A stretch of DNA of 64,000 nt, taken from an uncultured beta proteobacterium (GTDB lineage: Bacteria; Pseudomonadota; Gammaproteobacteria; Burkholderiales; SG8-39). The stretch spans positions 69,135 through 133,134 of the forward strand of contig CAWHBL010000008.1 of NCBI GenBank assembly GCA_963827555.1. Direction: 5' to 3'. The notes under the pieces were generated by a model that was given only the letters and a program-made list of their open reading frames with translations, had not been told where the DNA came from and did no database searches. Below, in pieces: positions 13,697 through 33,668 of this stretch. Numbering within the stretch: position 1 is the first letter of the stretch; every line of letters starts with the position of its first letter. The translations under genes and the position numbers were made by a program.

Positions 13697-14764
13697 CTAG
13701 AGGCTCTCGGCGATCGCCTTCCCGAGATCGGCCGTGCCCGCCTTTCCGCCGACGTCCGGCGTGCGCGGCGCGCCGGATCCGGGCGCGAGCGTCTTCTCGA
13801 TCGCCCGCATGATCGCGTCGTGCGCGTCCCGGTGGCCGAGGAAGTCGAGCATCATCGCTCCCGACCAGATCTGCGCGATCGGATTCGCGATGCGCTTCCC
13901 CGCGATGTCCGGCGCCGAGCCGTGCACCGGTTCGAAGAGCGACGGGAACTCGCGCTCGGGGTTCATGTTGGCCGACGGCGCGATGCCGATCGTGCCGGCG
14001 GTGGCCGGGCCGAGGTCGGAGAGGATGTCGCCGAACAGGTTGGAAGCGACGATCACGTCGAAGCGCTGCGGGTTCAGCACCATCTGGATCGTCAGGCCGT
14101 CGATGTGATACTGGCTCGTCTGCACCTGGGGATACCGCTTCGCCATCGCCGCGAACCGCTCGTCCCAGTAGGGCATGGTGATCGAGATGCCGTTCGATTT
14201 CGTCGCCGAGGTCACGTGCCGGCGCGGCCGCTGGAGGGCGAGCTCGAACGCGAACTTCATGATGCGGTCGACCCCCTTGCGGGTGAAGGTCGACGTCTGC
14301 ACCACCGTCTCGCGGTCGGTGCCTTCGAACATCCGGCCGCCGACCGACGAGTACTCGCCCTCGGTGTTCTCGCGGACGACGTAGTAGTCGATGTCGCCCG
14401 GGGAGCGGTCGGCGAGGGGCGAGCGGATCCCGGGCACGAGCCGCACCGGTCGCAGGTTCACGTACTGGTCGAACTCGCGCCGGAACTTGATCAGCGAGTC
14501 CCACAGCGACACGTGGTCGGGCGCGATCGCGGGCCAGCCGGTCGCGCCGAAGAAGATCGCGTCCTGGCCGCCGATCCGGTCCTTCCAGTCGGGCGGCATC
14601 CAATAGCCGTGCCGCGGATAGTTCTCGCAGCTCCAGTCGAAATGGTCGAGCACGAGCTCGAAGCCGAACTTGCGCGCGGCCGCGTCGAGCACGCGCAAGC
14701 CCTCCGGCATGACTTCCCTGCCGATCCCGTCGCCCGGGATCACGGCGATGCGGTGCGTTGCCAT
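13697..14764 (-). CDS. Tartrate dehydrogenase/decarboxylase (D-malate dehydrogenase, isopropylmalate dehydrogenase family)
   Basis: MATHRIAVIPGDGIGREV, FDWSCENY..HGYWMP, VRENTEGEYS, NPEREFPSLFEPVHGSAPDIAGKRIANPIA. Close to my memory of Pseudomonas tartrate dehydrogenase. Confidence 0.88.
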   Translation of the reverse strand: MATHRIAVIPGDGIGREVMPEGLRVLDAAARKFGFELVLDHFDWSCENYPRHGYWMPPDWKDRIGGQDAIFFGATGWPAIAPDHVSLWDSLIKFRREFDQYVNLRPVRLVPGIRSPLADRSPGDIDYYVVRENTEGEYSSVGGRMFEGTDRETVVQTSTFTRKGVDRIMKFAFELALQRPRRHVTSATKSNGISITMPYWDERFAAMAKRYPQVQTSQYHIDGLTIQMVLNPQRFDVIVASNLFGDILSDLGPATAGTIGIAPSANMNPEREFPSLFEPVHGSAPDIAGKRIANPIAQIWSGAMMLDFLGHRDAHDAIMRAIEKTLAPGSGAPRTPDVGGKAGTADLGKAIAESL

Positions 14765-14916: not shown

Positions 14917-16407
<1,491 letters not shown>

Positions 16408-16497
16408 GGCGGCGACGATTATGAACGCCATGACGCCCGGGGAGAGGTTTCGCGGCAGCCTGCTAGAATCGCCGCACCGCAACATCACTCACTTCCC

Positions 16498-18241: not shown

Positions 18242-19123
18242 ATGTCGATTCTGATCAATCGCAACACCAGGGTCGTTACCCAGGGCATCACCGGGAAGAC
18301 CGGCCAGTTCCACACCCGGATGTCCCGCGACTACGCGAACGGCAAGAGCTGCTACGTCGCCGGCGTGAACCCGAAGAAGGCGGGCGAGGACTTCGAGGGC
18401 ATCCCGATCTTCGCCAGCGTGGCGGAGGCGAAGGCGAAGACCGGCGTCAACACCTCGGTGATCTACGTGCCGCCGCCGGGCGCGGCCGCGGCGATCTGGG
18501 AGGCGGTGGAGGCCGACCTCGATCTCGTCATCTGCATCACCGAGGGCATCCCGGTGCGCGACATGATCGAGGTGCGCGACCGGATGCGCAAAGGCGGCCG
18601 GCGGACGCTGCTGGTCGGGCCGAACTGTCCGGGCGTGATCACGCCGGACGAGATCAAGATCGGGATCATGCCGGGCCACATCCACAAGAAGGGACGCATC
18701 GGCGTCGTCTCGCGCTCGGGCACGCTGACCTACGAGGCGGTGGGCCAGCTGAGCGCGCTCGGCCTCGGACAGTCGAGCGCGGTCGGGATCGGCGGCGACC
18801 CGGTGAACGGCATGAAGCACGTCGACGTCCTGCAGCGCTTCAACGACGACCCCGAGACCGACGCGGTGATCATGATCGGCGAGATCGGCGGGTCGGACGA
18901 GGAGGACGCGGCGCGCTGGGTGAAGGCCAACATGAAGAAGCCGGTGGTCGGCTTCATCGCCGGCGTGACCGCGCCGCCGGGCAAGCGCATGGGCCACGCG
19001 GGCGCAATCATCTCGGGCGGGAAGGGCACCGCGCAGGAGAAGCTGGAAGTCATGGAAGCATGCGGGATCAAGGTGACCCGCAATCCCGCCGAGATGGGCA
19101 AGCTGCTCAGGTCGGTCCTGTAA
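18242..19123 (+). CDS. sucD: Succinyl-CoA ligase alpha subunit
   Basis: [64 protein letters not shown]. Confidence 0.96.
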
Positions 19124-19128
19124 GCGCA

Positions 19129-19795
19129 GTGACGGCGCGCATCGCGCTCATCCACGCCGTCCGGGTCGCGATGGACCCGATCGCCGCGGCGTTCCGGCAC
19201 GGCTGGCCCGAAGCCGAGACGGTCAATCTCCTCGACGACGGCCTGAGCCGGGACCTCGAGCGCAGCGGCACGCTCGAAGGACCGATGACCGAGCGGATCG
19301 GCGCGCTCGCGGGCTACGCGGCGGGCCTCGGCGCCGACGGCATCCTCTACACGTGCTCGGCGTTCGGCGCGGCGATCGACAGGGCGCGGGCGGCGAGCCG
19401 CATTCCCGTGCTGAAGCCCAATGAAGCGATGCTCGAGGCTGCCCTCGACGCGGGCCGCCGCATCGCGCTCGTCGCCACCTTCGCGCCGACGATCCCGTCG
19501 ATGACCGGCGAGCTGGAGGCGCTCGCGCGCAGCCGCGCGGTCGCGGCGGCTATCACGCCGCTCTTCGTGCCCGGGGCGATGAAGGCGCTCGACGCCGGCG
19601 ACGGCGCCGAGCACGATCGCCTGATCGCCGAAGCGGTGCGGCCGCTCGCGGGGCACGACGCCGTCTTGCTCGCCCAGTTCTCGATGGCGCGCGCGGCGGC
19701 CGGCGGTCGAAGGGGCGATCGGCGGCAAAGTCCTCACCAGCCCCGCAACCGCGGTTGCGAAGCTGCGGCGTCTGGTGGAGGCTCGCGCGTCATGA
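19129..19795 (+). CDS. Asp/Glu/hydantoin racemase family protein, one frame change as read
   Basis: GTG at 19129. IALIHAV...ILYTCSAFG...RIALVATFAPT...VLLAQFSMA. The frame changes near 19700-19705. The true C-terminus AVEGAIGGKVLTSPATAVAKLRRLVEARAS ends in TGA at 19793-19795 and overlaps the next ATG as ATGA. Confidence 0.65.
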
Positions 19796-20668
19796 ACCGC
19801 CGCCGCTTCCTCGCCGCCGGTCCGGCGCTCGCGCTCGCGGCGTGCGCAGGGCAGGGCATTGCGCCGGCCCGCACCGCCGGCACCGCCGAGGTGAACGGCA
19901 CGCGGCTTTACTACGAGGTCGCGGGCAGCGGCGAGCCGGTGGTGCTCGTCCACGCGTTCACGCTCGACACCCGGATGTGGGACGACCAGTTCGAGGTGCT
20001 CGCGCGCGACTTCCGGGTGATCCGCTACGACGCGCGCGGGTTCGGGAAGTCGCCGCCGCCGAAACCGGGCGAGCCGTACTCGAACGCCGACGACCTCGCC
20101 GCGCTGCTCGACCGCCTCGACGCGCGCAAGGCGCACGTCGTCGGTCTGTCGATGGGCGGCAGGTTCGCGCTCGATTACGCGGTCACCTATCCCGACGGCC
20201 TGCGCTCGCTGGTGGTCATCGACGGCGTGATCGGCGGCTGGCAGTGGTCGCGGGAGTGGATCGGCGCCTACGCGCCGATCGTCGATGCCGGGCGCAAGCG
20301 CGACGTGGCGCAGGCGAAGTCGCTGTGGCTGGGGCATCCGCTCTTCGCGCCCGCGCGCGCGAAGCCGGAGGTCGGCGCACGGCTGAAACAGATGGTCGAC
20401 GACTACTCGGGCTGGCACTTCGTCAACCAGAACCCCGAGAAGGCGGTCGTCCCCGCCCGCGGTGGGGCGGCTGGGCGCGATCCGCGCGCCGACGCTCGTG
20501 CTCGTCGGCGAGCGCGATCTCCCCGACTTCCAGCGCATGTCCGAGCGGCTGGAGCGGGACATCCCCGGCGCACGCCGCGCGACGATCGCCGGCGCCGGGC
20601 ACATGGCGAACATGGAAGCGCCGGAACCGGTCAACAAGGCGCTCGGCGGCTTCCTCAACCGCGGCTGA
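19792..20668 (+). CDS. Alpha/beta-fold hydrolase with a lipoprotein/Tat-like leader, one frame change as read
   Basis: MNRRRFLAAGPALALAACAG, VVLVHAFTLD, GLSMGG (nucleophile elbow). The frame changes in a C run near 20451-20460 into VGRLGAIRAPTLVLVGERD...AGHMANME. Confidence 0.72.
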
Positions 20669-20699
20669 TTCCGCGCCGCAACGTCCGCCCGATCGACGC

Positions 20700-20713
20700 T
20701 TGACGAGGGTCAA
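20700..20713. promoter_or_regulatory. Crp/Fnr-type palindrome TTGAC-GAGG-GTCAA upstream of the formate dehydrogenase genes
   Basis: Perfect inverted half-sites with a 4-nt spacer, 53 nt upstream of the first possible fds start (TTG at 20766). Same half-sites as the box at 34420. Confidence 0.45.
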
Positions 20714-22573: not shown

Positions 22574-25382
22574 ATGACGGCGATCACCAAGGAAGAAGTC
22601 GCGGCGCTGCCGGTCGAGTTCAAGCTGAACGGCCGCACGGTCGTCGGCCGCGCGGACGAGCCGATCATCGAGACCGCGCGCAAGAACGGCATCGTCATCC
22701 CGCATCTCTGCTACGGCGGCCGGATCCGATCCGACGGCAACTGCCGCGCGTGCATGGTCGAGATCAAGGGCGAGCGCGTCCTCGCCCCGTCCTGCTGCCG
22801 CTTCCCCAAGGACGGGATGGAGGTCTCGACCGAGAGCGAGCGCGCGCTGAAGTCGCAGAAGATGGTGCTCGAGCTGCTGCTCTCCGACATGCCGGAGAAG
22901 CGCTATACCAAGCGCAACAAGGTGGATTCCTGGGCGCGGCGCCTCGGCGTCGGACTGCCGCGGTTCCCGGCCCGCCAGCAGCCGCGCGCCGACCTCTCGC
23001 ACCCCGCAATCGCGGTCAACCTCGACGCCTGCATCCAGTGCACGCGCTGCGTGCGCGCCTGCCGCGAGGAGCAGGTGAACGACGTGATCGGCTACGCGTT
23101 CCGCGGCGACCACTCGAAGATCGTGTTCGATCTCGACGATCCGATGGGCGCCTCGACCTGCGTCGCCTGCGGCGAGTGCGTGCAGGTGTGCCCGACCGGT
23201 GCGCTCATGCCGGCGCGCGAGGTGGGGCTGGTCGAAGTGGACAGGAAAGTCGACTCGGTCTGCCCGTACTGCGGCGTCGGGTGCCTGCTGACCTATCACA
23301 TCAAGGACAACCGGATCCTCCACGTCGAGGGCGCCAACGGCCCCGCGAACGGCGGGCGGCTGTGCGTGAAGGGCCGCTACGGCTTCGACTACGTCAATCA
23401 CCGGCAGCGGCTGACGAAGCCGCTCGTGCGCAAACGGGGCGTACCGAAAACAAAGGATTTCGTCGTCGATCCCGACCGCTGGCAGGAGGCGTTCCGCGAG
23501 GCGACCTGGGAAGAGGCGCTCGACCTGGCGGCGAACGGCCTCAAGACGATCCGCGACCGGGACGGTTCCCGAGCGCTCGCCGGCTTCGGCTCGGCGAAGG
23601 GCACGAACGAGGAGGCCTATCTCTTCCAGAAGCTGGTCCGCACCGGCTTCCGCACGAACAACGTCGACCACTGCACGCGGCTCTGCCACGCGTCGAGCGT
23701 CGCGGCGCTGATGGAGGGCATCAATTCGGGCGCCGTCTCCAACCAGGTGCGCGACGTGGCGAAAGCCGAGGTCATTTTCGTCATCGGGGCGAACCCGACC
23801 GGCAACCACCCGGTCGCCGCGACCTGGATGAAGAACGCCGCGAAGCGCGGCGTGAAGCTGATCGTCGCCGACCCGCGCCGAACCGACCTCGCGCGGCACG
23901 CGACCCATGTCCTGCAGTTCAACCCCGACACCGACGTCGCGCTGCTCAACGCGATGCTGTACACGATCGTCGAGGAGGGGCTGGTCAACGAGGCGTTCGT
24001 GCGCGATCGCACGGCGAACTTCGAAGCCCTGCGCGAGAACGTCAAGAAGTACGCGCCCGAGACGATGGCGCCGATCTGCGGCATCCCGGCCGAGAAGATC
24101 CGCGAAGTCGCGCGGCTCTACGCGACGTCGAAGGGTTCGATGATCCTCTGGGGCATGGGAATCTCGCAGCACATCCACGGCACCGACAACGCGCGCTGCC
24201 TGATCGCGCTCACGCTCGTCACCGGCCAGATCGGCCGTCCCGGCAGCGGACTCCACCCGCTGCGCGGCCAGAACAACGTGCAGGGAGCCTCCGACTCCGG
24301 CCTCATCCCGATGGTGTATCCGGACTACCAGCGCGTGGACAACCCCGAGGCGAAGCAGCGCTTCGAGCGGCTCTGGGGCCAGGAGCTCGACCCGAAGCCG
24401 GGGCTCACCGTGGTCGAGATCATGAACGCGGCGAAGAAGGGCGAGATCCGCGGCATGTACGTGATGGGCGAGAACCCGGCGATGTCCGACCCGGACGTCG
24501 ACCACGCGCGCGAAGCGCTCGCGGCTGCTCGAGCACCTCGTCGTGCAGGACATCTTCCTCACCGAGACGGCCTATCTCGCCGACGTCGTGCTGCCCGCGA
24601 CGGCCTGGCCGGAGAAGGTCGGAACGGTGACCAACACCGACCGCATGGTGCAGCTCGGGCGCAAGGCGGTCGAGCCGCCGGGCGACGCCCGCGAGGACCT
24701 GTGGATCATCCAGGAGCTCGCGCGCCGGATGGGGCTCCGCTGGGAGTATGCGCATCCGCGCGACGTCTTCAACGAGATGCGCAAGGGGATGGACTCGATC
24801 GCCGGCATCACCTACGAGCGCCTCGAGCGCGATTCGTCAGTGACCTATCCGTGCGAGAACGAGGGCGATCCCGGGCAGCCGGTGGTGTTCACCGAGCACT
24901 TCCCGACCGCGACCGGGCGCGGCAAGTTCGTCCCGGCGGACATCATCTCCGCCGCCGAGCGCCCCGACGACGAATACCCGCTGGTGCTGATCACCGGCCG
25001 GCAGCTCGAGCACTGGCACACCGGCGCGATCACGCGCCGCGCCGGCGTGCTCGACGCGATCGAGCCTGAGCCGGTCGCGAGCATCCATCCGCTCGACCTC
25101 GAGCGCCTGCGGGTCAAACCCGGGGAGATCGTCACCGTCGAATCGCGGCGCGGCGCGATCTCGCTCTATGCGCGCGTCGACGAGGGCACGCCGCAAGGGG
25201 CGGTGTTCATCCCGTTCTGCTACTACGAGGCTGCCGCCAACAAGCTCACCAACCCGGTGCTCGACCCGTTCGGGAAGATTCCGGAGTTCAAGTACTGCGC
25301 GGTGCGCGTGCGGCGCGGCGGCGAGCTACCGCGGCAGCTGACCTACGGCGGCGGGCAGGCGCCGCTGCCCTCGGCGGCGTAA
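22574..25382 (+). CDS. fdsA: NAD-dependent formate dehydrogenase catalytic (molybdopterin) alpha subunit, Cys-type, one frame change as read
   Basis: N-terminal ferredoxin clusters (CRACMVEI, CIQCTRCVRAC, CVACGECVQVCP, CPYCGVGC). Mo-bisPGD body with HCTRLCHASSV, where TGC at 23684-23686 sits at the Sec/Cys position. The frame changes near 24515-24525 between DVDHAREALA and LEHLVVQDIFLTETA. Confidence 0.9.
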
Positions 25383-25431: not shown

Positions 25432-26445
25432 ATGACGCCGGCGCCGACGTCCGAGCACCTCCTCGACGCGCTCCACCGTCTGGATCTGATCCCGCCCGGT
25501 GCCCACGCCGAGGTCACGCCGCTTGCCGGCGGCGTGTCCTCGGACATCGTGCGGGTCGACGTCGCCGGCCGCAGCTTCTGCGTCAAGCAGGCGCTGGCGA
25601 AGCTCAAGGTCGCCGCCGAATGGCGGGCGCCGGTCGCGCGCAACCACAGCGAGGCGGAATGGATCCGCGTCGCCGGCGAGATCGTCCCCGAGGCCGTGCC
25701 GCGGCTGATCGGCGAGGACCGCGCCGCAGGCCTCTTCGCGATGGGATGGCTCGCGCCGGAATCGCACCCGGTGTGGAAGGAAGAGCTGCGCGACGGCCGG
25801 ATCGATCCGGCGGTGGCGGTCGAGGTCGGGCGCCGGATCGCGCTGATCCACGCCGCGACCGCCGGGCGCGTGGACGTCGCCACCCGCTTCGCGAACGACG
25901 AGATCTTCCACCAGATCCGGATCGAGCCCTACCTGCTCGCGACCGCCGAGCGGCATCCCGACTGCGCGAACGCGCTGCGCCGGCTCGCGGAAACGACCGC
26001 CCGGACCAAGCTCGCGCTGGTGCACGGCGACGTCAGCCCGAAGAACATCCTCGTCGGCCCGGGCGGCCCGGTCTTCCTCGATGCCGAGTGCGCGTGGTAC
26101 GGCGACCCGGCGTTCGACCTCGCGTTCCTGCTCAACCACCTGCTGCTCAAGTGCGCGTGGCGGCCGCAGTGGCGCGCGCGCTACCTCGCGGCGTTCCGCG
26201 CCGCCGCCGAGGCCTACCTCGCCGGCGTCGCGTGGGAGCCGCGCGACGTGTTCGAAGGGCGCTCGGCATGGCTGCTCCCGGGGCTTCTGCTGGCGCGCGT
26301 CGACGGGAAGTCGCCGGTCGAGTACGTCACCGAGGAAGCCGATCGCGAGCGGATACGCGCGTGCGCGAAGCCGCTCCTCCTCGCCCCGCGTACCCGGCTC
26401 GCCGAGGTGGCCGAGGCGTGGCGGCAGTCGACGGAGGACTGTTGA
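25432..26445 (+). CDS. APH/choline-kinase-fold small-molecule kinase (methylthioribose-kinase-like phosphotransferase family)
   Basis: LAGGVSSDIVRV, FCVKQAL, Brenner motif LVHGDVSPKNILV, DAECAWYGDPAFDLAF. The stop overlaps the TTG start of the enolase-like gene as TTGA. Confidence 0.75.
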   Translation: MTPAPTSEHLLDALHRLDLIPPGAHAEVTPLAGGVSSDIVRVDVAGRSFCVKQALAKLKVAAEWRAPVARNHSEAEWIRVAGEIVPEAVPRLIGEDRAAGLFAMGWLAPESHPVWKEELRDGRIDPAVAVEVGRRIALIHAATAGRVDVATRFANDEIFHQIRIEPYLLATAERHPDCANALRRLAETTARTKLALVHGDVSPKNILVGPGGPVFLDAECAWYGDPAFDLAFLLNHLLLKCAWRPQWRARYLAAFRAAAEAYLAGVAWEPRDVFEGRSAWLLPGLLLARVDGKSPVEYVTEEADRERIRACAKPLLLAPRTRLAEVAEAWRQSTEDC

Positions 26446-27779
26446 GCGGCGCGGCGATCGCCAGCGTCAGGGGCCGCCGGGTCTGGGACTCGCGCGGCCG
26501 GCCGACGGTCGAAGCGGAGGTCGGGCTCGCCTCGGGCGCGCACGGCCGGGCGATCGCGCCTGCGGGCGCCTCGCGCGGCGCGCACGAGGCGGTCGATCTG
26601 CGCGACGGCGGGGCGCGGCTCGGCGGAATGGACGTCGGCGCCGCGGTGGCGAACGTGAACGTCGCGATCGCGCGTGCGCTCGCCGGCATGGACGCGCACG
26701 ATCAGGCGGCGGTCGACGCGGCGCTCGCCGCCCTCGACGGCACGCCCGACCGGTCGCGGCTCGGCGGCAACGCGACGACCGCAGTGTCGCTCGCGGTGCT
26801 GCACGCCGCCGCCTCGCACGCGGGACTGCCGGTGTACCGCCAGCTCGCCGGGCCGGGTCCGATCCGGCTGCCGTTGCCGGAGATCCAGATCTTCGGCGGC
26901 GGCGCGCACGCCGGCCGCCGCGTCGACGTGCAGGACTTCATGGTGATGGCGCTCGGGGCGGCGAGCTTCGCGCAAGCGCTGGAGATGACCGCCGAGGTCT
27001 ATCGCGCGGCCGGCGAGCTGATGCGCGGTGCGGGGAAGCTCGCCGGCGTCGCCGACGAGGGCGGCTGGTGGCCGGCGTTCGACACCAACGACGAGGCGCT
27101 CGAGTGGCTGGTGCGGGCGATCGAGCGCGCCGGCTTCACGCCCGGCGACGAAATGGCGATCTCGCTCGACATCGCCGCCTCCGAACTGGTGGTGCCGGGG
27201 GATCCCTTTCGTTCCCCCGGCAGCGGCCGGCCCGTCCGCTACCGCCTCGGCCTCGAGGGGCGCGAGCTCGACTCGGATGCGATGGGCGAGATGCTCGAGC
27301 GCTGGCTCGGGCGGTACCCGATCGTCTCGATCGAGGACCCGTTCGGCGAGGACGATCCCGAGGCGCTCGCGCGGTTCACGCGGGCGGTGGGGGAACGCGT
27401 GCAGGTCATCGGCGACGACTTCCTGGTGACGAACGCCGCGCGGGTCGCCGCCGCGGCCGCGCGCGGCGCGTGCAACGCCGTCCTGGTGAAGCCGAACCAG
27501 GCGGGCACCGTGACCGACGCACGCGCCGCGCTCGAGGCGGGCAAGCGGGCGCGGTGGGGCACGATCGTGTCCGCGCGGTCCGGCGAGACCGAGGACGTCT
27601 CGATCGCGCATCTTGCCGTCGGCTGGGACGCGGGCCAGCTCAAGGTCGGGTCGTTCGCCCGGTCCGAGCGGATGGCGAAGTGGAACGAGTGCCTCCGGAT
27701 CGAGGAGGCGGAGGGGGCGAACGCGCGCTTCGCCGGGCGCGCCGCGCTGCCGCAATTGCTCGCGGCGAGCCGCGGTTAG
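26442..27779 (+). CDS. Enolase-family protein; atypical paralogue with Ala at the catalytic His373-equivalent position and an insertion
   Basis: [115 protein letters not shown] replaces the canonical SHRSGETED (GCG at 27573-27575). Confidence 0.85.
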
Positions 27780-27858: not shown

Positions 27859-29531
27859 ATGCCGTCCGACATCGAGATTGCCCAGGCCGCGAAGCTCCAG
27901 CGCATCTCCAAGGTAGCGCTCGAGAAGCTCGGCATCGCCGAGGACCATCTCGAGCCCTACGGCCACTACAAGGCGAAGGTCTCGCTCAAGTACCTCGATT
28001 CGCTGAAATCGAAGCCCGACGGCAAGCTGATCCTCGTCACCGCGATGACGCCGACCCCCGCGGGCGAGGGCAAGACGACGACCACGGTGGGTCTCGGCGA
28101 CGCGCTGAACCAGATCGGCAGGAAGGCGATGATCTGCCTGCGCGAGCCCTCGCTCGGGCCGGTGTTCGGCATGAAGGGCGGCGCGGCCGGCGGCGGGTAC
28201 GCGCAGGTGGTGCCGATGGAGGACATCAACCTCCACTTCACCGGCGACTTCAGCGCGATCGCGCTCGCGAACAACCTGCTCGCGGCGCTGCTCGACAACC
28301 ACATCAACCACGGCAACGAGCTCGGGATCGACCTCCGGCGCATCCAGTGGAAGCGCGTGGTCGACATGAACGACCGGGCGCTCCGCGACATCGTCGTCGC
28401 GCTCGGCGGGACGGCGAACGGCTACCCGCGCGAGGACGGGTTCGACATCGTGGTCGCCTCCGAGGTGATGGCGATCTTCTGCCTCTCGACCTCGGTCGAG
28501 GACCTGAAAGCAGCGGCTCGGCAACATCGTCGTCGGCTACACCAAGGACCAGAAACCGGTGACCGCGCGCGACCTGAAAGCGCACGGCGCGATGACCGTG
28601 CTGCTGAAGGACGCGCTCGCGCCGAACCTGGTGCAGACGCTCGAGAACAACCCGGCGTTCATCCACGGCGGTCCGTTCGCGAACATCGCCCACGGCTGCA
28701 ACTCGGTGATCGCGACCCGGTCGGCGCTCAAGCTCGTCGACTACGTGGTGACCGAGGCCGGGTTCGGCGCCGACCTCGGCGCCGAGAAGTTCATCGACAT
28801 CAAATGCCGCAAGACCGGCCTCCGCCCGAACGCCACGGTGATCGTCGCGACCGTGCGCGCCCTCAAGTACCACGGCGGACAGGATCTCAAGACGATCGGC
28901 CAGGAGAATCTGGCGGCGCTCGAGAAGGGGCTCGCGAACCTGGAGCGGCACGTGGAGAACGTGCAAAAGAACTACGGCATCCCGTGCGTCGTCTCGATCA
29001 ACCGCTTCAACCAGGACACGCCGGCGGAGCTCGAGCTCCTGAAGAGCCGGATGGCCAAGTACGGCGTGCCGGTGGTGCTCGCCACCCACTGGGGTGACGG
29101 CGGCAAGGGCGCGGCCGAGCTCGCGCGCGTCGTCGTCGGGCCTGTGCGACCAGAAATCGAGCTTCCGCTTCGTCTACGAGGACGCGGATCCGCTCTGGGA
29201 CAAGATCAACAAGATCGCGAAGACGATCTACCGCGCGGGCGACGTCACCGCCGACGCGAAGGTGCGCGCGCAGATCAAGAAGCTCCAGGACGACGGCTAC
29301 GGCCACTACCCCGTCTGCGTCGCCAAGACCCAGTACTCGTTCGCGACCGACGCGCAGGTGCGCGCCGCGCCGAGCGGGCACGTCGTCAACGTGCGCGAGG
29401 TGCGGCTCGCGGCCGGCGCCGAGTTCATCGTCATGATCTGCGGCGACGTGATGACCATGCCGGGGCTGCCGAAGGTGCCGTCGGCGGAAAAGATCGACAT
29501 CGTCGACGGCAAGGTCGTCGGGCTGTTCTAG
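27859..29531 (+). CDS. fhs: Formate--tetrahydrofolate ligase, two frame changes as read
   Basis: [52 protein letters not shown], then [21 protein letters not shown]...[16 protein letters not shown]...[14 protein letters not shown], then [13 protein letters not shown]...[11 protein letters not shown]. Frame changes near 28511-28516 and in the GGG run at 29138-29140. Confidence 0.9.
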
Positions 29532-30542: not shown

Positions 30543-31559
30543 ATGAAATCGATGAATGCACTTTCTTTCCGCGCTGCGGCGATCGCATGCGCATCGACCC
30601 TTGCGCTCACCGCGGGCCCGGCGCAGGGGCAGGCCTGGGAGCCGACCAAGACGGTGGAGTTCATCGTCCCGGCCGGAACCGGCGGCGGCGCCGACCAGAT
30701 GGCGCGCCTCAGCCAGGCGATCATCACCAAGCACAAGCTGATGAACCAGCCGATGGTCGTCATCAACAAGGCCGGCGGCGCCGGCGCCGAGGGGTTCCTC
30801 GACGTGAAGGGCGCCAAGGGCGATCCGCACAAGATCATCATCACGCTGTCGAACCTGTTCACGACGCCGCTCGCGACCGGCGTGCCGTTCAACTGGCGCG
30901 ACCTGACGCCGGTGACGATGCTCGCGCTCGACCAGTTCGTGCTGTGGGTGAACGCCGAGTCGCCGTACAAGTCGGCCAAGGACTACGTCGAGGCGGCCAA
31001 GAAAGCCGGCCCGAGCAAGTTCAAGATGGCGGGCACCGGGTCGAAGCAGGAGGACGAGATCATCACCGTCGCGCTGCAGAAGCAGACCGGCACGAAGTTC
31101 ATCTACATCCCGTTCAAGGGCGGCGGCGACGTCGCGACCCAGCTCGTCGGCAAGCACGTCGATTCGACGGTGAACAACCCGATCGAGGCGGTGGCGCAGT
31201 GGCGCGGCGGGAAGCTGCGGCCGCTGTGCGTGTTCGACGACAAGCGGCTGACGTACAAGACGAAGGTCACCGACTCGATGGCCTGGAGCGACATCCCGAC
31301 CTGCAAGGAGGCGGGTGTCGACATGAGCTACCTGATGCTGCGCGGCATCTTCATGCCGAGCGGGGTCACCGACGCGCAGCGCGACTACTACGTCGAGCTC
31401 TTCAAGAAGGTCCGCGCGACGCCCGAGTGGAAGGAGTTCATGGAGCGCGGCGCGTTCAACCAGACCGCCCTGACCGGCAAGGAGTACTCCGACTGGGTGG
31501 CGAAGGAGGAGCAGCGCCACCGCGAGCTCATGAAGGAAGCCGGCTTCATCGCGAAGTAG
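30543..31559 (+). CDS. tctC: Tripartite tricarboxylate transporter substrate-binding protein
   Basis: Signal peptide, [41 protein letters not shown]. First gene of a tctCBA operon. Confidence 0.9.
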
Positions 31560-31639
31560 GATCAAGTCCCGCCGGCCGGCGCTTCAGCGGCGACCGGGGG
31601 TCGCCGCCGTCGGCCCGCGTTTCTCCGCACGGTCTTCAC

Positions 31640-32143
31640 ATGGACGATAACAACGACCGTCCCGCCGCTCGCACCCGCACGCTGGAAATCGTCGTCGCCG
31701 GCCTGCTCTTCCTGCTCGGGGCGCTGGTGATCGCGGACAGCGTGCGCCTCGGCGCCCGCTGGGCCGAGGACGGGCCGCAGGCCGGCTACTTTCCGTTCTA
31801 CATCGGGCTGCTGATCTGCTTCTCCACCGCGGTGGTGATCTTCCGCGCGGCGGGCGACAAGGCGAAAGCGGCCAAGACCTTCGTCACGCACGGCGCCTTC
31901 AGGCAGGTGCTGTGGATGCTCGTGCCGTCGATCGTCTACGTGGTGCTGATCAAGCCGCTCGGCCTCTACGTGGCCTCGACGGTCTTCATCGCGTTCTTCA
32001 TGCGGCGGCTGGGCAACTATCCGTGGCCGCAGACCATCCTGGTCGCGGTCGGCGTCAGCGTCGCGTTCTTCCTGCTGTTCGAGGTGTGGTTCACGCTGCC
32101 GCTGCCGAAGGGACCGCTCGAGGCGTGGCTCAAGCTCGACTAG
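31640..32143 (+). CDS. tctB: Tripartite tricarboxylate transporter small membrane subunit
   Basis: 167-aa, 4-TM protein ([31 protein letters not shown]...) between tctC and tctA. It is the C-terminal part of the long ORF 28559..32143. Confidence 0.85.
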
Positions 32144-32174
32144 CGCGCAAAGCGCTCATTCGTTAGGGGGGTCG

Positions 32175-33668
32175 TTGGAGGAGATCAGCTCGCTCATCCA
32201 GGGGTTCGGCGTCGCGCTGACGCCGTTCAACCTGATGCTGATGTTCGTCGGCGTGGTGCTCGGCGTGATCATCGGCGTGCTGCCGGGGCTCGGCGGCGCC
32301 AACGGCGTCGCCATCCTGCTGCCGCTCACGTTCACGATGCCGCCGACCTCGGCGATCATCATGCTGTCGTGCATCTACTGGGGGGCGCTCTTCGGCGGCG
32401 CGATCACGTCGATCCTGTTCAACATTCCCGGCGAGCCGTGGTCGGTGGCGACGACCTTCGACGGCTACCCGCTCGGCCAGAAGGGCCGCGCCGGCGCCGC
32501 GCTCACCACCGCCTTCACGTCGTCGTTCATCGGCGCGCTGGTCGCGGTGATCGTGATCACGTTCCTCTCGCCGATCGTCGCGAACTTCGCGCTCGCGTTC
32601 GGCCCGCCGGAGTTCTTTGCCGTCTATCTGCTCACGTTCTGCGCCTTCGTCGGCATGAGCAAGGGCCAGGCGCTGAAGACGATCGCCTCGATGATGGTCG
32701 GCTTCGCGCTCGCCGCCGTCGGGCTCGACACGGTGACCGGGTCGCTGCGCCTCACGTTCGGTTCGACGGCGCTGCTGCAGGGCTTCGACTTCCTGATCGC
32801 GGTGATCGGTCTCTTCGGGATCGGCGAGATCCTGCTCACGCTCGAGGAGGGACTCGCGTTCAAGGGCGCGCGGGCGAAGATCAACCTGAAGGTGGTGCTG
32901 GAAACCTGGCGCGAGCTGCCGCGCTACTGGCTGACCAGCCTCCGCAGCTCGGCGGTCGGCTGCTTCATGGGCATCGTCCCGGGCGGCGCCACGCCGGCCT
33001 CGTTCATGGCCTACGGCGTGGCGAAGCGGTTCTCGAAGGACGGCGAGAAGTTCGGCACCGGCGTGGTCGAGGGCGTGGTGGCGCCGGAGACGGCGGCGCA
33101 CGCCGCGGGCACCTCGGCGCTGCTGCCGATGCTCACCCTCGGCGTGCCGGGATCGCCGACGGCGGCGGTGCTGCTCGGCGGGCTGCTGATCTGGGGTCTG
33201 CAGCCGGGACCGCTCCTCTTCCAGGAGCAGAAGGAGTTCGTCTGGGGCCTGATCGCGAGCATGTACCTCGGCAACATCGCCGGGCTCATCGTCGTGCTCA
33301 CGTGCGTGCCGCTGTTCGCCGCGATCCTGCGCATACCGTTCTCGATCATCGCGCCGATCATCATCGTCATCTGCGCGATCGGCGCGTACACCGTGCACAA
33401 CTCGATGTTCGACGTCTATCTGATGGTGCTGTTCGGCGTCGCGGGCTACGTGCTGCGCAAGCTCGACTACCCGCTCGCGCCGCTCGTGCTCGCGCTCGTG
33501 CTGGGCGACCGGGCCGAGAGCGCGTTCCGGCAGGCGATGCTCGTGTCGCAGGGGGACATGTCGATCTTCTTCTCGAAACCGCTCGTCGGCGGCATGACGA
33601 CGCTCGCGCTGGTGCTGCTCTTCTGGCCGCTCATCCAGGGCGGCCTGCGCAAGGCGAAGGCCGCCTGA
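32175..33668 (+). CDS. tctA: Tripartite tricarboxylate transporter large permease subunit
   Basis: 497-aa polytopic protein, TTG start. LIQGFGVALTPFNL, GVLPGLGGANGVAILLP, GIVPGGATPASFMAYG. Confidence 0.92.
   Translation: MEEISSLIQGFGVALTPFNLMLMFVGVVLGVIIGVLPGLGGANGVAILLPLTFTMPPTSAIIMLSCIYWGALFGGAITSILFNIPGEPWSVATTFDGYPLGQKGRAGAALTTAFTSSFIGALVAVIVITFLSPIVANFALAFGPPEFFAVYLLTFCAFVGMSKGQALKTIASMMVGFALAAVGLDTVTGSLRLTFGSTALLQGFDFLIAVIGLFGIGEILLTLEEGLAFKGARAKINLKVVLETWRELPRYWLTSLRSSAVGCFMGIVPGGATPASFMAYGVAKRFSKDGEKFGTGVVEGVVAPETAAHAAGTSALLPMLTLGVPGSPTAAVLLGGLLIWGLQPGPLLFQEQKEFVWGLIASMYLGNIAGLIVVLTCVPLFAAILRIPFSIIAPIIIVICAIGAYTVHNSMFDVYLMVLFGVAGYVLRKLDYPLAPLVLALVLGDRAESAFRQAMLVSQGDMSIFFSKPLVGGMTTLALVLLFWPLIQGGLRKAKAA

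Follow-up and report, generated by a model that had tools for sequence, protein, structure and literature searches.

The 64,000-nucleotide stretch analysed here, called the window below, covers positions 69,135 to 133,134 of contig CAWHBL010000008.1 in assembly GCA_963827555.1 of an uncultured beta proteobacterium (Burkholderiales; SG8-39) and has a G+C content of 70%. It contains a gene for a kinase of the aminoglycoside phosphotransferase (APH) fold, followed immediately by a gene for an atypical enolase (Table 1). The genes of this region are arranged in the order fdsG/B-fdsA-kinase-enolase-fhs-terC-tctCBA-(crp/fnr)-oxc-frc, and sucCD, glpK and a tartrate dehydrogenase gene are found upstream of the pair. 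The kinase and the variant enolase constitute a real, widespread and uncharacterised unit, which is most likely an accessory two-step funnel leading from a hydroxy acid to a phosphoenol acid.

Table 1. Location of the features of the kinase-enolase locus, in window coordinates
Feature	Position	Strand	Description	Basis
Kinase	25432..26445	+	APH-fold, MtnK-like small-molecule kinase, 337 aa	Translation; Pfam APH, 63.5 bits
Coupling signals	26433..26445	+	GGAGG 26433-26437; TTGA stop/start overlap 26442-26445	
Variant enolase paralog	26442..27779	+	445 aa, TTG start	TIGR01060, 456 bits
Arg159-Arg160	26916..26921	+	Catalytic loop 2 (GGAHAGRR)	Alignment of 80 paralogs
Asp165 codon GAC	26934..26936	+	Position of Glu168 (yeast) / Glu167 (E. 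coli); reads QDF	
Insertion of ~12 residues	27189..27227	+	Lineage-specific	~9/121 closest proteins
Ala378 codon GCG	27573..27575	+	Position of His373 (yeast) / His369 (E. coli)	
Palindrome TTGATTGCAATCAA	27782..27795	.	3 nt past the enolase stop, upstream of fhs	
tctCBA	30543..33668	+	Tripartite carboxylate transporter, possibly associated with the pair	Pfam TctC, TctA

Coupling of the kinase and the enolase

The stop codon of the kinase (TGA, 26443-26445) overlaps the TTG start codon of the enolase (26442-26444), as an earlier note made from the letters of this DNA had read, and the GGAGG motif is located 4 nt upstream of the TTG. Four-base overlaps between the two genes recur at other loci (L028, L029, L063, L082 and L036) and in annotated records. 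A locus scan restricted to one genome per species returned 80 loci, distributed among the Burkholderiales, many Alphaproteobacteria, Streptomyces and two metagenome-assembled genomes (MAGs), one of a Dehalococcoidia and one of a Vicinamibacterales. In 63 of these 80 loci, a kinase ortholog (47-90% identity) is encoded directly upstream of the enolase. Five genomes without a kinase within 6 kb were found to possess exactly one ortholog each, located on the same contig within ~7 kb in four of them and on another contig in the fifth. A search for longer kinase relatives revealed 81 protein clusters in which both enzymes are joined in a single polypeptide of 700-1010 aa; the kinase precedes the enolase in 80 of these clusters, the enolase motif SARSGE[TS]ED described below is present in all 81, and the QD pair in 80. 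A complex prediction computed from the enolase and kinase alignments gave a score of 0.00, from which no verdict was drawn. The adjacency and the fusions support the earlier proposal that the two genes work as one functional unit.

The kinase scores well above the gathering cut-off of Pfam APH (PF01636; 63.5 bits for a cut-off of 23.2), and its translation displays the catalytic loop HGDVSPKN at residue 198 and the sequence LDAECA at residue 216. Residues K52, HGD198-200, N205, D217 and E219 are conserved across 79 homologs. The same holds for R70, K116, R163, K240, R277 and R289, six basic residues situated outside the ATP site, and their conservation suggests that the substrate is acidic. 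When the profile of these 79 homologs was compared with the PDB, the closest solved structure was the B. subtilis methylthioribose (MTR) kinase (E 9e-20), in an alignment that covers residues 10-268 only. With MtnK (TIGR01767; PDB 2olc, 2pyw), the kinase shares the APH fold, the HGDxxxxN loop and the DxE-type metal motif followed by YGDPxFD, but it is ~60 residues shorter, its C-terminal substrate lobe does not align and no methionine-salvage genes surround it. It scores 55.5 bits over a partial alignment with the MtnK equivalog TIGR01767 (cut-off 275) and 17.2 bits with the APH(3') equivalog NF033068 (cut-off 205). Corramycin phosphotransferase and, in the profile comparison, the ACAD11 kinase domain are weak matches, and a protein atlas search returned generic 'phosphotransferase' clusters only. 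APH-type families being its sole matches, the protein falls outside the known glycerate kinase folds (PF02595 and MOFRL, PF05161).

Active site and distribution of the variant enolase

The second protein belongs to the enolase family, with 456.4 bits for TIGR01060 (cut-off 300), 150 bits for Enolase_N and 283 bits for Enolase_C. With TIGR01060, the canonical enolases of carrier genomes reach 620-700 bits and the paralogs found there 465-487 bits. Compared with canonical enolase (EC 4.2.1.11; TIGR01060; PF03952 and PF00113; E. coli, yeast, PDB 4mks), the variant has the same two-domain fold and length, and an identity of ~46% as estimated by reading alignments with solved enolases. The three metal ligands are D243 (DIAASE), E298 (SIEDPF) and D325 (GDDF), equivalent to Asp246, Glu295 and Asp320 of the yeast enzyme; the catalytic residues K350 (KPNQ), E206 and K401 (LKVG) correspond to yeast Lys345, Glu211 and Lys396, and the phosphate-binding residues H156, R379 and S380 to His159, Arg374 and Ser375. 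E298, D325, K350, E206 and K401 are invariant in the 80 paralogs, and the phosphate site as well as S44, the equivalent of the lid residue Ser39, are invariant in the clade. This conserved core, whose metal ligands and catalytic lysines had been correctly recognised in the earlier note, accords with the binding of a 2-phospho acid in the manner of enolase.

The subsite of the C3 hydroxyl, formed by Glu168 and His373 in canonical enolase, is on the contrary altered in every paralog. The motif SARSGETED (27570-27596) takes the place of the canonical SHRSGETED, a substitution already read from the GCG codon, so that an alanine occupies the position of His373 in 80/80 loci and in 120/120 of the closest database proteins. 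The latter (74-100% identity) all read SARSGE[TS], and the 80 loci all read SARSGE[TS]ED. At the position of Glu168, an aspartate is aligned in 80/80 paralogs and a glutamate in 5/5 canonical enolases of carrier genomes; six further canonical enolases all possess the histidine of SHRSGETED, and five of them the QE motif. In E. coli enolase, the equivalent Glu167 and His369 form hydrogen bonds with the SF2312 hydroxyl that stands in for the C3-OH of 2-phosphoglycerate (PMC6863902), and the fixed losses are therefore located at the leaving-group subsite. The two arginines of catalytic loop 2 are present in 73/80 and 78/80 paralogs; at these positions, canonical enolases show an asparagine and then P, N or S. 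Further basic residues are found near the C3 subsite or in the lid: R20 (77/80), R45 (46/80) and H390. The other motif changes are PSGAS to PAGAS, GDEGG to ADEGG, KTG to KVG and IADL to IAHL, and the canonical GGxAP reads GGWWP in the window enolase and GGxWP in the clade. E168D, H373A, the loop-2 Arg-Arg, ADEGG, GGxWP, KVG and IAHL together set the clade apart from canonical enolase. Since they are fixed in 120/120 proteins and 80/80 loci, the variant residues are due neither to chance nor to sequencing error; they persist across phyla in homologs of 64-97% identity with intact frames.

The protein had also been credited with an extra segment. About 12 residues of it are indeed inserted, in a surface region that is gapped in the alignment with solved enolases, whereas the remaining 12 are common to the clade. 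The insertion is confined to the closest relatives and was rejected as a functional hallmark.

A canonical SHRSGETED enolase (620-700 bits) is also encoded in 10/10 other carrier genomes, including the two closest relatives of the window's organism, and the variant is therefore an accessory paralog and not the sole enolase of its hosts. This result agrees with the earlier suspicion that the window does not encode a plain housekeeping enolase. The second, canonical copy that the note proposed to look for thus exists in the other carriers; in the window's own assembly (3.1 Mb, 66% complete) the variant paralog was found and no canonical enolase, which is most likely missing there for lack of sequence. 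In a maximum-likelihood tree, one branch (SH-aLRT 97) separates the 80 paralogs from 11 canonical enolases of carrier genomes, and the Streptomyces sequences are nested among those of Burkholderiales. Among 120 good genomes sampled evenly from the window's order, 18 (~15%) encode the kinase, each in a single copy. Carriers also occur among Alphaproteobacteria, Actinomycetota and MAGs of Chloroflexota and Acidobacteriota, and culturable ones include Rhodococcus opacus PD630, Methylobacterium nodulans, Cupriavidus necator, Azospirillum brasilense and Ralstonia pickettii. The pair recurs, often as a fusion, in many soil and water bacteria, and most of the plasmids that carry it are non-mobilizable chromid-like replicons. 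The variant differs from canonical enolase in its coupling or fusion to a kinase, in the presence of a canonical copy in the same genome and in its patchy, accessory distribution. Its conservation, its coupling and fusion to the kinase, its coexistence with canonical enolase and its retained catalytic core are direct observations.

More distant enolase-like genes were encountered in two assemblies. The Dehalococcoidia MAG (G011, C1:347168-348415, L113) has three enolase-family genes, of which one is canonical (641 bits), another is the kinase-coupled variant (470 bits) and the last, at 332 bits, reads LQDVM and AAPGETED. The window's assembly contains a third, far more divergent kinase and enolase-like pair followed by an EamA/DMT transporter (G000 C27:77539-79800, minus strand; L101:8575-11801). 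The enolase-like protein of this pair (P0123, 159 bits) has Arg at the position of Lys345, Asn at that of Asp320 and no SxRSGE phosphate motif, and the frame of the accompanying kinase is broken once. The two closest relatives have comparable genes, scoring 159 and 128 bits. At 6 other loci, a gene for an EamA transporter likewise comes after the main-type pair.

Genomic contexts and fusion partners

The kinase is also fused to enzymes other than the enolase. One fusion joins it to a D-2-hydroxyacid dehydrogenase (D-2HADH; 659 aa, 14 clustered sequences from several contigs) and another to a 2-oxoacid reductase of the ketopantoate-reductase type (687 aa, dozens of contigs), a family that is also the divergent neighbour of the pair in Ramlibacter; these two reductase families are unrelated. 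The closest solved relative of the D-2HADH is glycerate dehydrogenase/glyoxylate reductase. Fusions with a UxuA-type dehydratase form four clusters, and the other partners are an SMP-30 lactonase, an amidohydrolase, an alpha/beta hydrolase and a PEP-hydrolase-like domain (PEP, phosphoenolpyruvate). Within ~6 kb of the pair, a D-2HADH is encoded in 24/81 loci, a hydrolase of the fumarylacetoacetate hydrolase (FAH) family in 17/81, a related short-chain dehydrogenase/reductase (SDR) in 15/81 and an HpaD-like VOC dioxygenase together with a CMD-family protein in 16/81.

Annotated records illustrate these contexts. On a Burkholderia pseudomallei plasmid, the order is SDR-uxuA-GntR-uxuA-SDR-lactonase-FAH-kinase-eno-sugar ABC-RraA, and in Paracoccus seriniphilus and Roseibium aggregatum tctCBA and LacI are followed by kinase-eno-FAH-SDR-sugar ABC. 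Two Rhizobium plasmids have LysR-ppc-D-2HADH-kinase opposite cupin-eno-VOC-...-ADH, the last being an alcohol dehydrogenase, and R. opacus PD630 has FAH-D-2HADH-eno-kinase-FAH-3HCDH. A larger cluster is conserved in Streptomyces, Rhodococcus, Rhizobium, Trinickia and Ralstonia (L084, L021, L040, L117, L119 and L123). Besides the kinase and the variant enolase, it comprises an HpaD-like VOC dioxygenase, a CMD-family protein, a zinc-dependent alcohol dehydrogenase, one or two FAH hydrolases and a cupin, as well as a dehydrogenase of the 3-hydroxyacyl-CoA type, a D-2HADH and, in Rhizobium, ppc. In three Burkholderiales sugar-transporter operons, an open reading frame (ORF) of 261 aa lies directly upstream of the kinase (L020:4201-4986, L028:4216-5001, L068:4432-4953) and has no Pfam, NCBIfam or PDB sequence match.

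The sugar operons recall the non-phosphorylative Route III of sugar breakdown, in which an SDR and an FAH hydrolase split 2-keto-3-deoxy acids into pyruvate and a short hydroxy acid (PMC6336799). The published cases concern L-fucose, L-rhamnose and pentoses, with a 2-keto-3-deoxy acid 4-dehydrogenase and an FAH hydrolase, and end in pyruvate and lactate or glycolate, without kinase or enolase (PMC6336799). The same families are found beside the pair: aldose dehydrogenase, lactonase, acid-sugar dehydratase, SDR, FAH hydrolase and sugar ABC transporter. By analogy, Route III acting on a hexonate would yield glycerate as second product. No description of a hexonate Route III ending in the conversion of glycerate to PEP was found in the literature searched.

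The gene order of the window is common to L006, whose enolase is 89% identical, and L007, and partly to L017; the context is entirely different at the other loci. The C1/oxalate setting is therefore lineage-specific, and the earlier placement of the pair in a C1/oxalate island, valid in this narrow lineage, does not extend to the family. A serine-cycle island was likewise considered and rejected, as the upstream CoA ligase scores as sucC, a succinyl-CoA ligase gene (593 bits, over the cut-off), its score for malate-CoA ligase being 526 bits for a cut-off of 604. A scan of the plus strand between the fds genes and fhs detected no promoter- or terminator-like site. The palindrome TTGATTGCAATCAA that follows the enolase had been labelled a Crp/Fnr-type box from the sequence; the hairpin located past the enolase stop has no folding advantage over shuffled sequences (z = -0.8). 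A TctC homolog lies within 6-9 kb of the pair in 6/81 loci, and on the Paracoccus seriniphilus and Roseibium aggregatum plasmids (L120, L121) tctCBA is directly upstream of LacI and the kinase-eno genes; in the viewed stretches of these two loci no oxalate genes are annotated. The tripartite tricarboxylate transporter of the window may thus serve the substrate of the pair rather than oxalate.

Several other features of the window were recorded. The tartrate dehydrogenase (13697-14764, minus strand; TIGR02089, 544 bits, over the cut-off) lies 9-12 kb upstream of the pair together with the glycerol kinase GlpK (14917-16488, minus strand), and an FGGY kinase is the divergent neighbour of the pair in ~10 Burkholderiales loci. 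When judged against the intact genes of L007, fhs (27859-29531) shows frame changes near 28508 and near 29137-29142; fdsA (22574-25382) has one between 24505 and 24528, and the fhs of L006 is split too. These frame changes are probably assembly indel errors and not signs of pseudogenes. In a 547-aa ORF at 19060-20703, an Asp/Glu racemase-type domain (84-211) and an alpha/beta hydrolase domain (293-501) occur together, which could reflect a true fusion or a frame artefact.

Candidate substrates and products of the pair

For the substrate, the phosphorylated position and the product, we infer a conversion of glycerate into 2-phosphoglycerate and then PEP, a reading to which we give about an even chance. 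The MtnK-like kinase would phosphorylate the 2-hydroxyl of a (2R)-2,3-dihydroxy acid, D-glycerate being the likeliest, which could derive from hydroxypyruvate through the associated 2-oxoacid reductase or appear as the C3 product of oxidative sugar-acid routes. The variant enolase would then form PEP by abstraction of the proton at C2 and loss of the leaving group at C3. In the lineage of the window, where the pair closes the fdsGBA formate dehydrogenase unit and precedes fhs and tctCBA, carbon at the level of hydroxypyruvate or glycerate would be passed into PEP. This assignment is favoured by the fusions with reductases, lactonase and dehydratase, by the FAH/SDR sugar operons and by ppc, whose presence beside the reductase and the kinase points to PEP as the product. 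The earlier proposal of a glycerate kinase with its dehydratase is thus sustained by the contexts (2-oxoacid reductases, Route III-like operons, ppc); the idea that this kinase is a non-orthologous replacement of the usual one is not, since a MOFRL glycerate kinase accompanies it in 17/18 carriers of the order sample. Displacement of the known glycerate kinases was rejected on this ground.

The proposed reaction (D-glycerate 2-kinase, EC 2.7.1.165) and the place in the pathway, after reduction of hydroxypyruvate or tartronate semialdehyde or at the end of sugar-acid routes, are those of the known glycerate kinases, whose three classes (class I GlxK/GarK, PF02595; class II MOFRL/TtuD/GckA, PF05161; class III plant GLYK) have an unrelated fold. 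To our knowledge, no known class travels with its own enolase. An APH-fold kinase fused or coupled to the enzyme of the following elimination is likewise found in LvaA/LvaC and ACAD10/11; there the phosphate is the leaving group on an acyl-CoA, whereas the variant enolase has preserved a binding site for phosphate, which in this case stays with the product. Pantoate, considered on account of the ketopantoate-reductase and lactonase fusions, was dropped because its C3 carries no leaving group.

Several observations weigh against glycerate. The MOFRL kinase is present in 17/18 carriers and 51/102 non-carriers of the order sample, a clearly positive association even though relatives in the sample are not independent, and in 5/5 named carriers, so that a second glycerate kinase with its own enolase looks redundant; PF02595 was not found in the 5 carriers examined. 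In the nearest relative, the MOFRL gene is 2 kb from gcl (glyoxylate carboligase) on the same strand, indicating that oxalate/glyoxylate assimilation already has its own kinase there. The change of both C3-OH ligands in every member and the addition of two loop-2 arginines would answer no obvious need in a plain 2-phosphoglycerate enolase. The contexts are also mixed, some being aromatic-type clusters with HpaD-like dioxygenase, CMD and cupin.

The same two steps could be applied to another (2R)-2-hydroxy acid with a different group at C3, which we regard as a real possibility, although the balance is somewhat against it; the earlier note had likewise allowed for a different phospho-hydroxy acid. 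The enolase would then release a group different from hydroxide, or its product would be a 3-substituted analogue of PEP. The candidates are (R)-sulfolactate, converted through phosphosulfolactate into PEP and sulfite; 3-phosphoglycerate, converted through 2,3-bisphosphoglycerate into PEP and phosphate; and tartrate, tetronate or L-glycerate. The sole fixed losses are at the C3-OH subsite (E168D, H373A) with new basic residues nearby or in the lid, changes that fit a bulkier, anionic or better leaving group expelled without acid catalysis, and the six conserved basic residues of the kinase outside the ATP site are in agreement with such a substrate. It would also account for the dedicated enolase that travels with the kinase and for the carriers that keep both MOFRL glycerate kinase and canonical enolase. 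In a Route III scheme, the group that the sugar carries at C6 ends up at C3 of the hydroxy acid, and a 6-sulfo or 6-phospho sugar would give substrates of this kind. The ppc neighbour and the convergent, varied contexts, however, better suit a central metabolite such as glycerate. Against sulfonate chemistry in particular, no sulfite exporter, sulfite dehydrogenase or sulfoquinovosidase is listed among the product names of seven annotated loci, and no such families figure among the 25 commonest neighbour families. With 3-phosphoglycerate, the pair would be an ATP-spending bypass that lacks a clear benefit, and L-glycerate is at odds with the associated reductases, which make (R)-acids. The stronger proposition, rather unlikely in our opinion, is that the clade is not a 2-phosphoglycerate enolase: the kinase would make a new 2-phospho acid, and the enolase would release PEP through a non-hydroxide leaving group or form a 3-substituted PEP analogue. 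Sulfite leaving from phosphosulfolactate, which would be a new desulfonation route, and phosphate leaving from 2,3-bisphosphoglycerate would be examples.

The two changed residues are also those that bind the SF2312 hydroxyl in E. coli enolase (PMC6863902), and the pair could in principle confer resistance, an inhibitor-insensitive enolase substituting for the canonical one and the kinase inactivating a natural enolase inhibitor such as an SF2312-like phosphonate or tartronate semialdehyde phosphate. Some kinases of the APH fold act on antibiotics, corramycin phosphotransferase being one of the weak matches, and the patchy distribution (18/120 genomes of the order) with Streptomyces nested among Burkholderiales would be compatible with this role. 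It is nevertheless very improbable: the fusions and operons with reductase, lactonase, sugar-acid dehydratase, FAH, sugar and carboxylate transporters and ppc indicate catabolism, single polypeptides better suit consecutive metabolic steps, and most carrier plasmids are non-mobilizable and chromid-like. We give even less credence to an ordinary glycolytic enolase beside an unrelated kinase, or to a decaying duplicate. The window's assembly, with frameshifts in neighbouring genes and no detected canonical enolase, would allow such a view; that assembly is only 66% complete, however, the two closest relatives and 8 other carriers hold a canonical enolase, the variant residues are fixed across phyla (64-97% identity) in intact frames, and both the pairing and the fusions are conserved.

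Full-text literature searches found no study of the kinase and variant enolase module. Where these proteins carry a name, it is 'enolase' or 'phosphopyruvate hydratase' for the one and 'aminoglycoside phosphotransferase family protein' for the other; with these labels, metabolic reconstructions count glycolytic enzymes wrongly and overlook a step of a pathway. Should glycerate be the substrate, the pair would add to the glycerate kinases a fourth class, of APH fold, that has its own channelled enolase, and oxidative sugar-acid and hydroxypyruvate routes would be closed directly at PEP. If it is another acid, an enolase subgroup long treated as isofunctional would gain a second function, and, should the clade not be a 2-phosphoglycerate enolase, it would be the first functionally divergent branch within the 'true enolase' subgroup.

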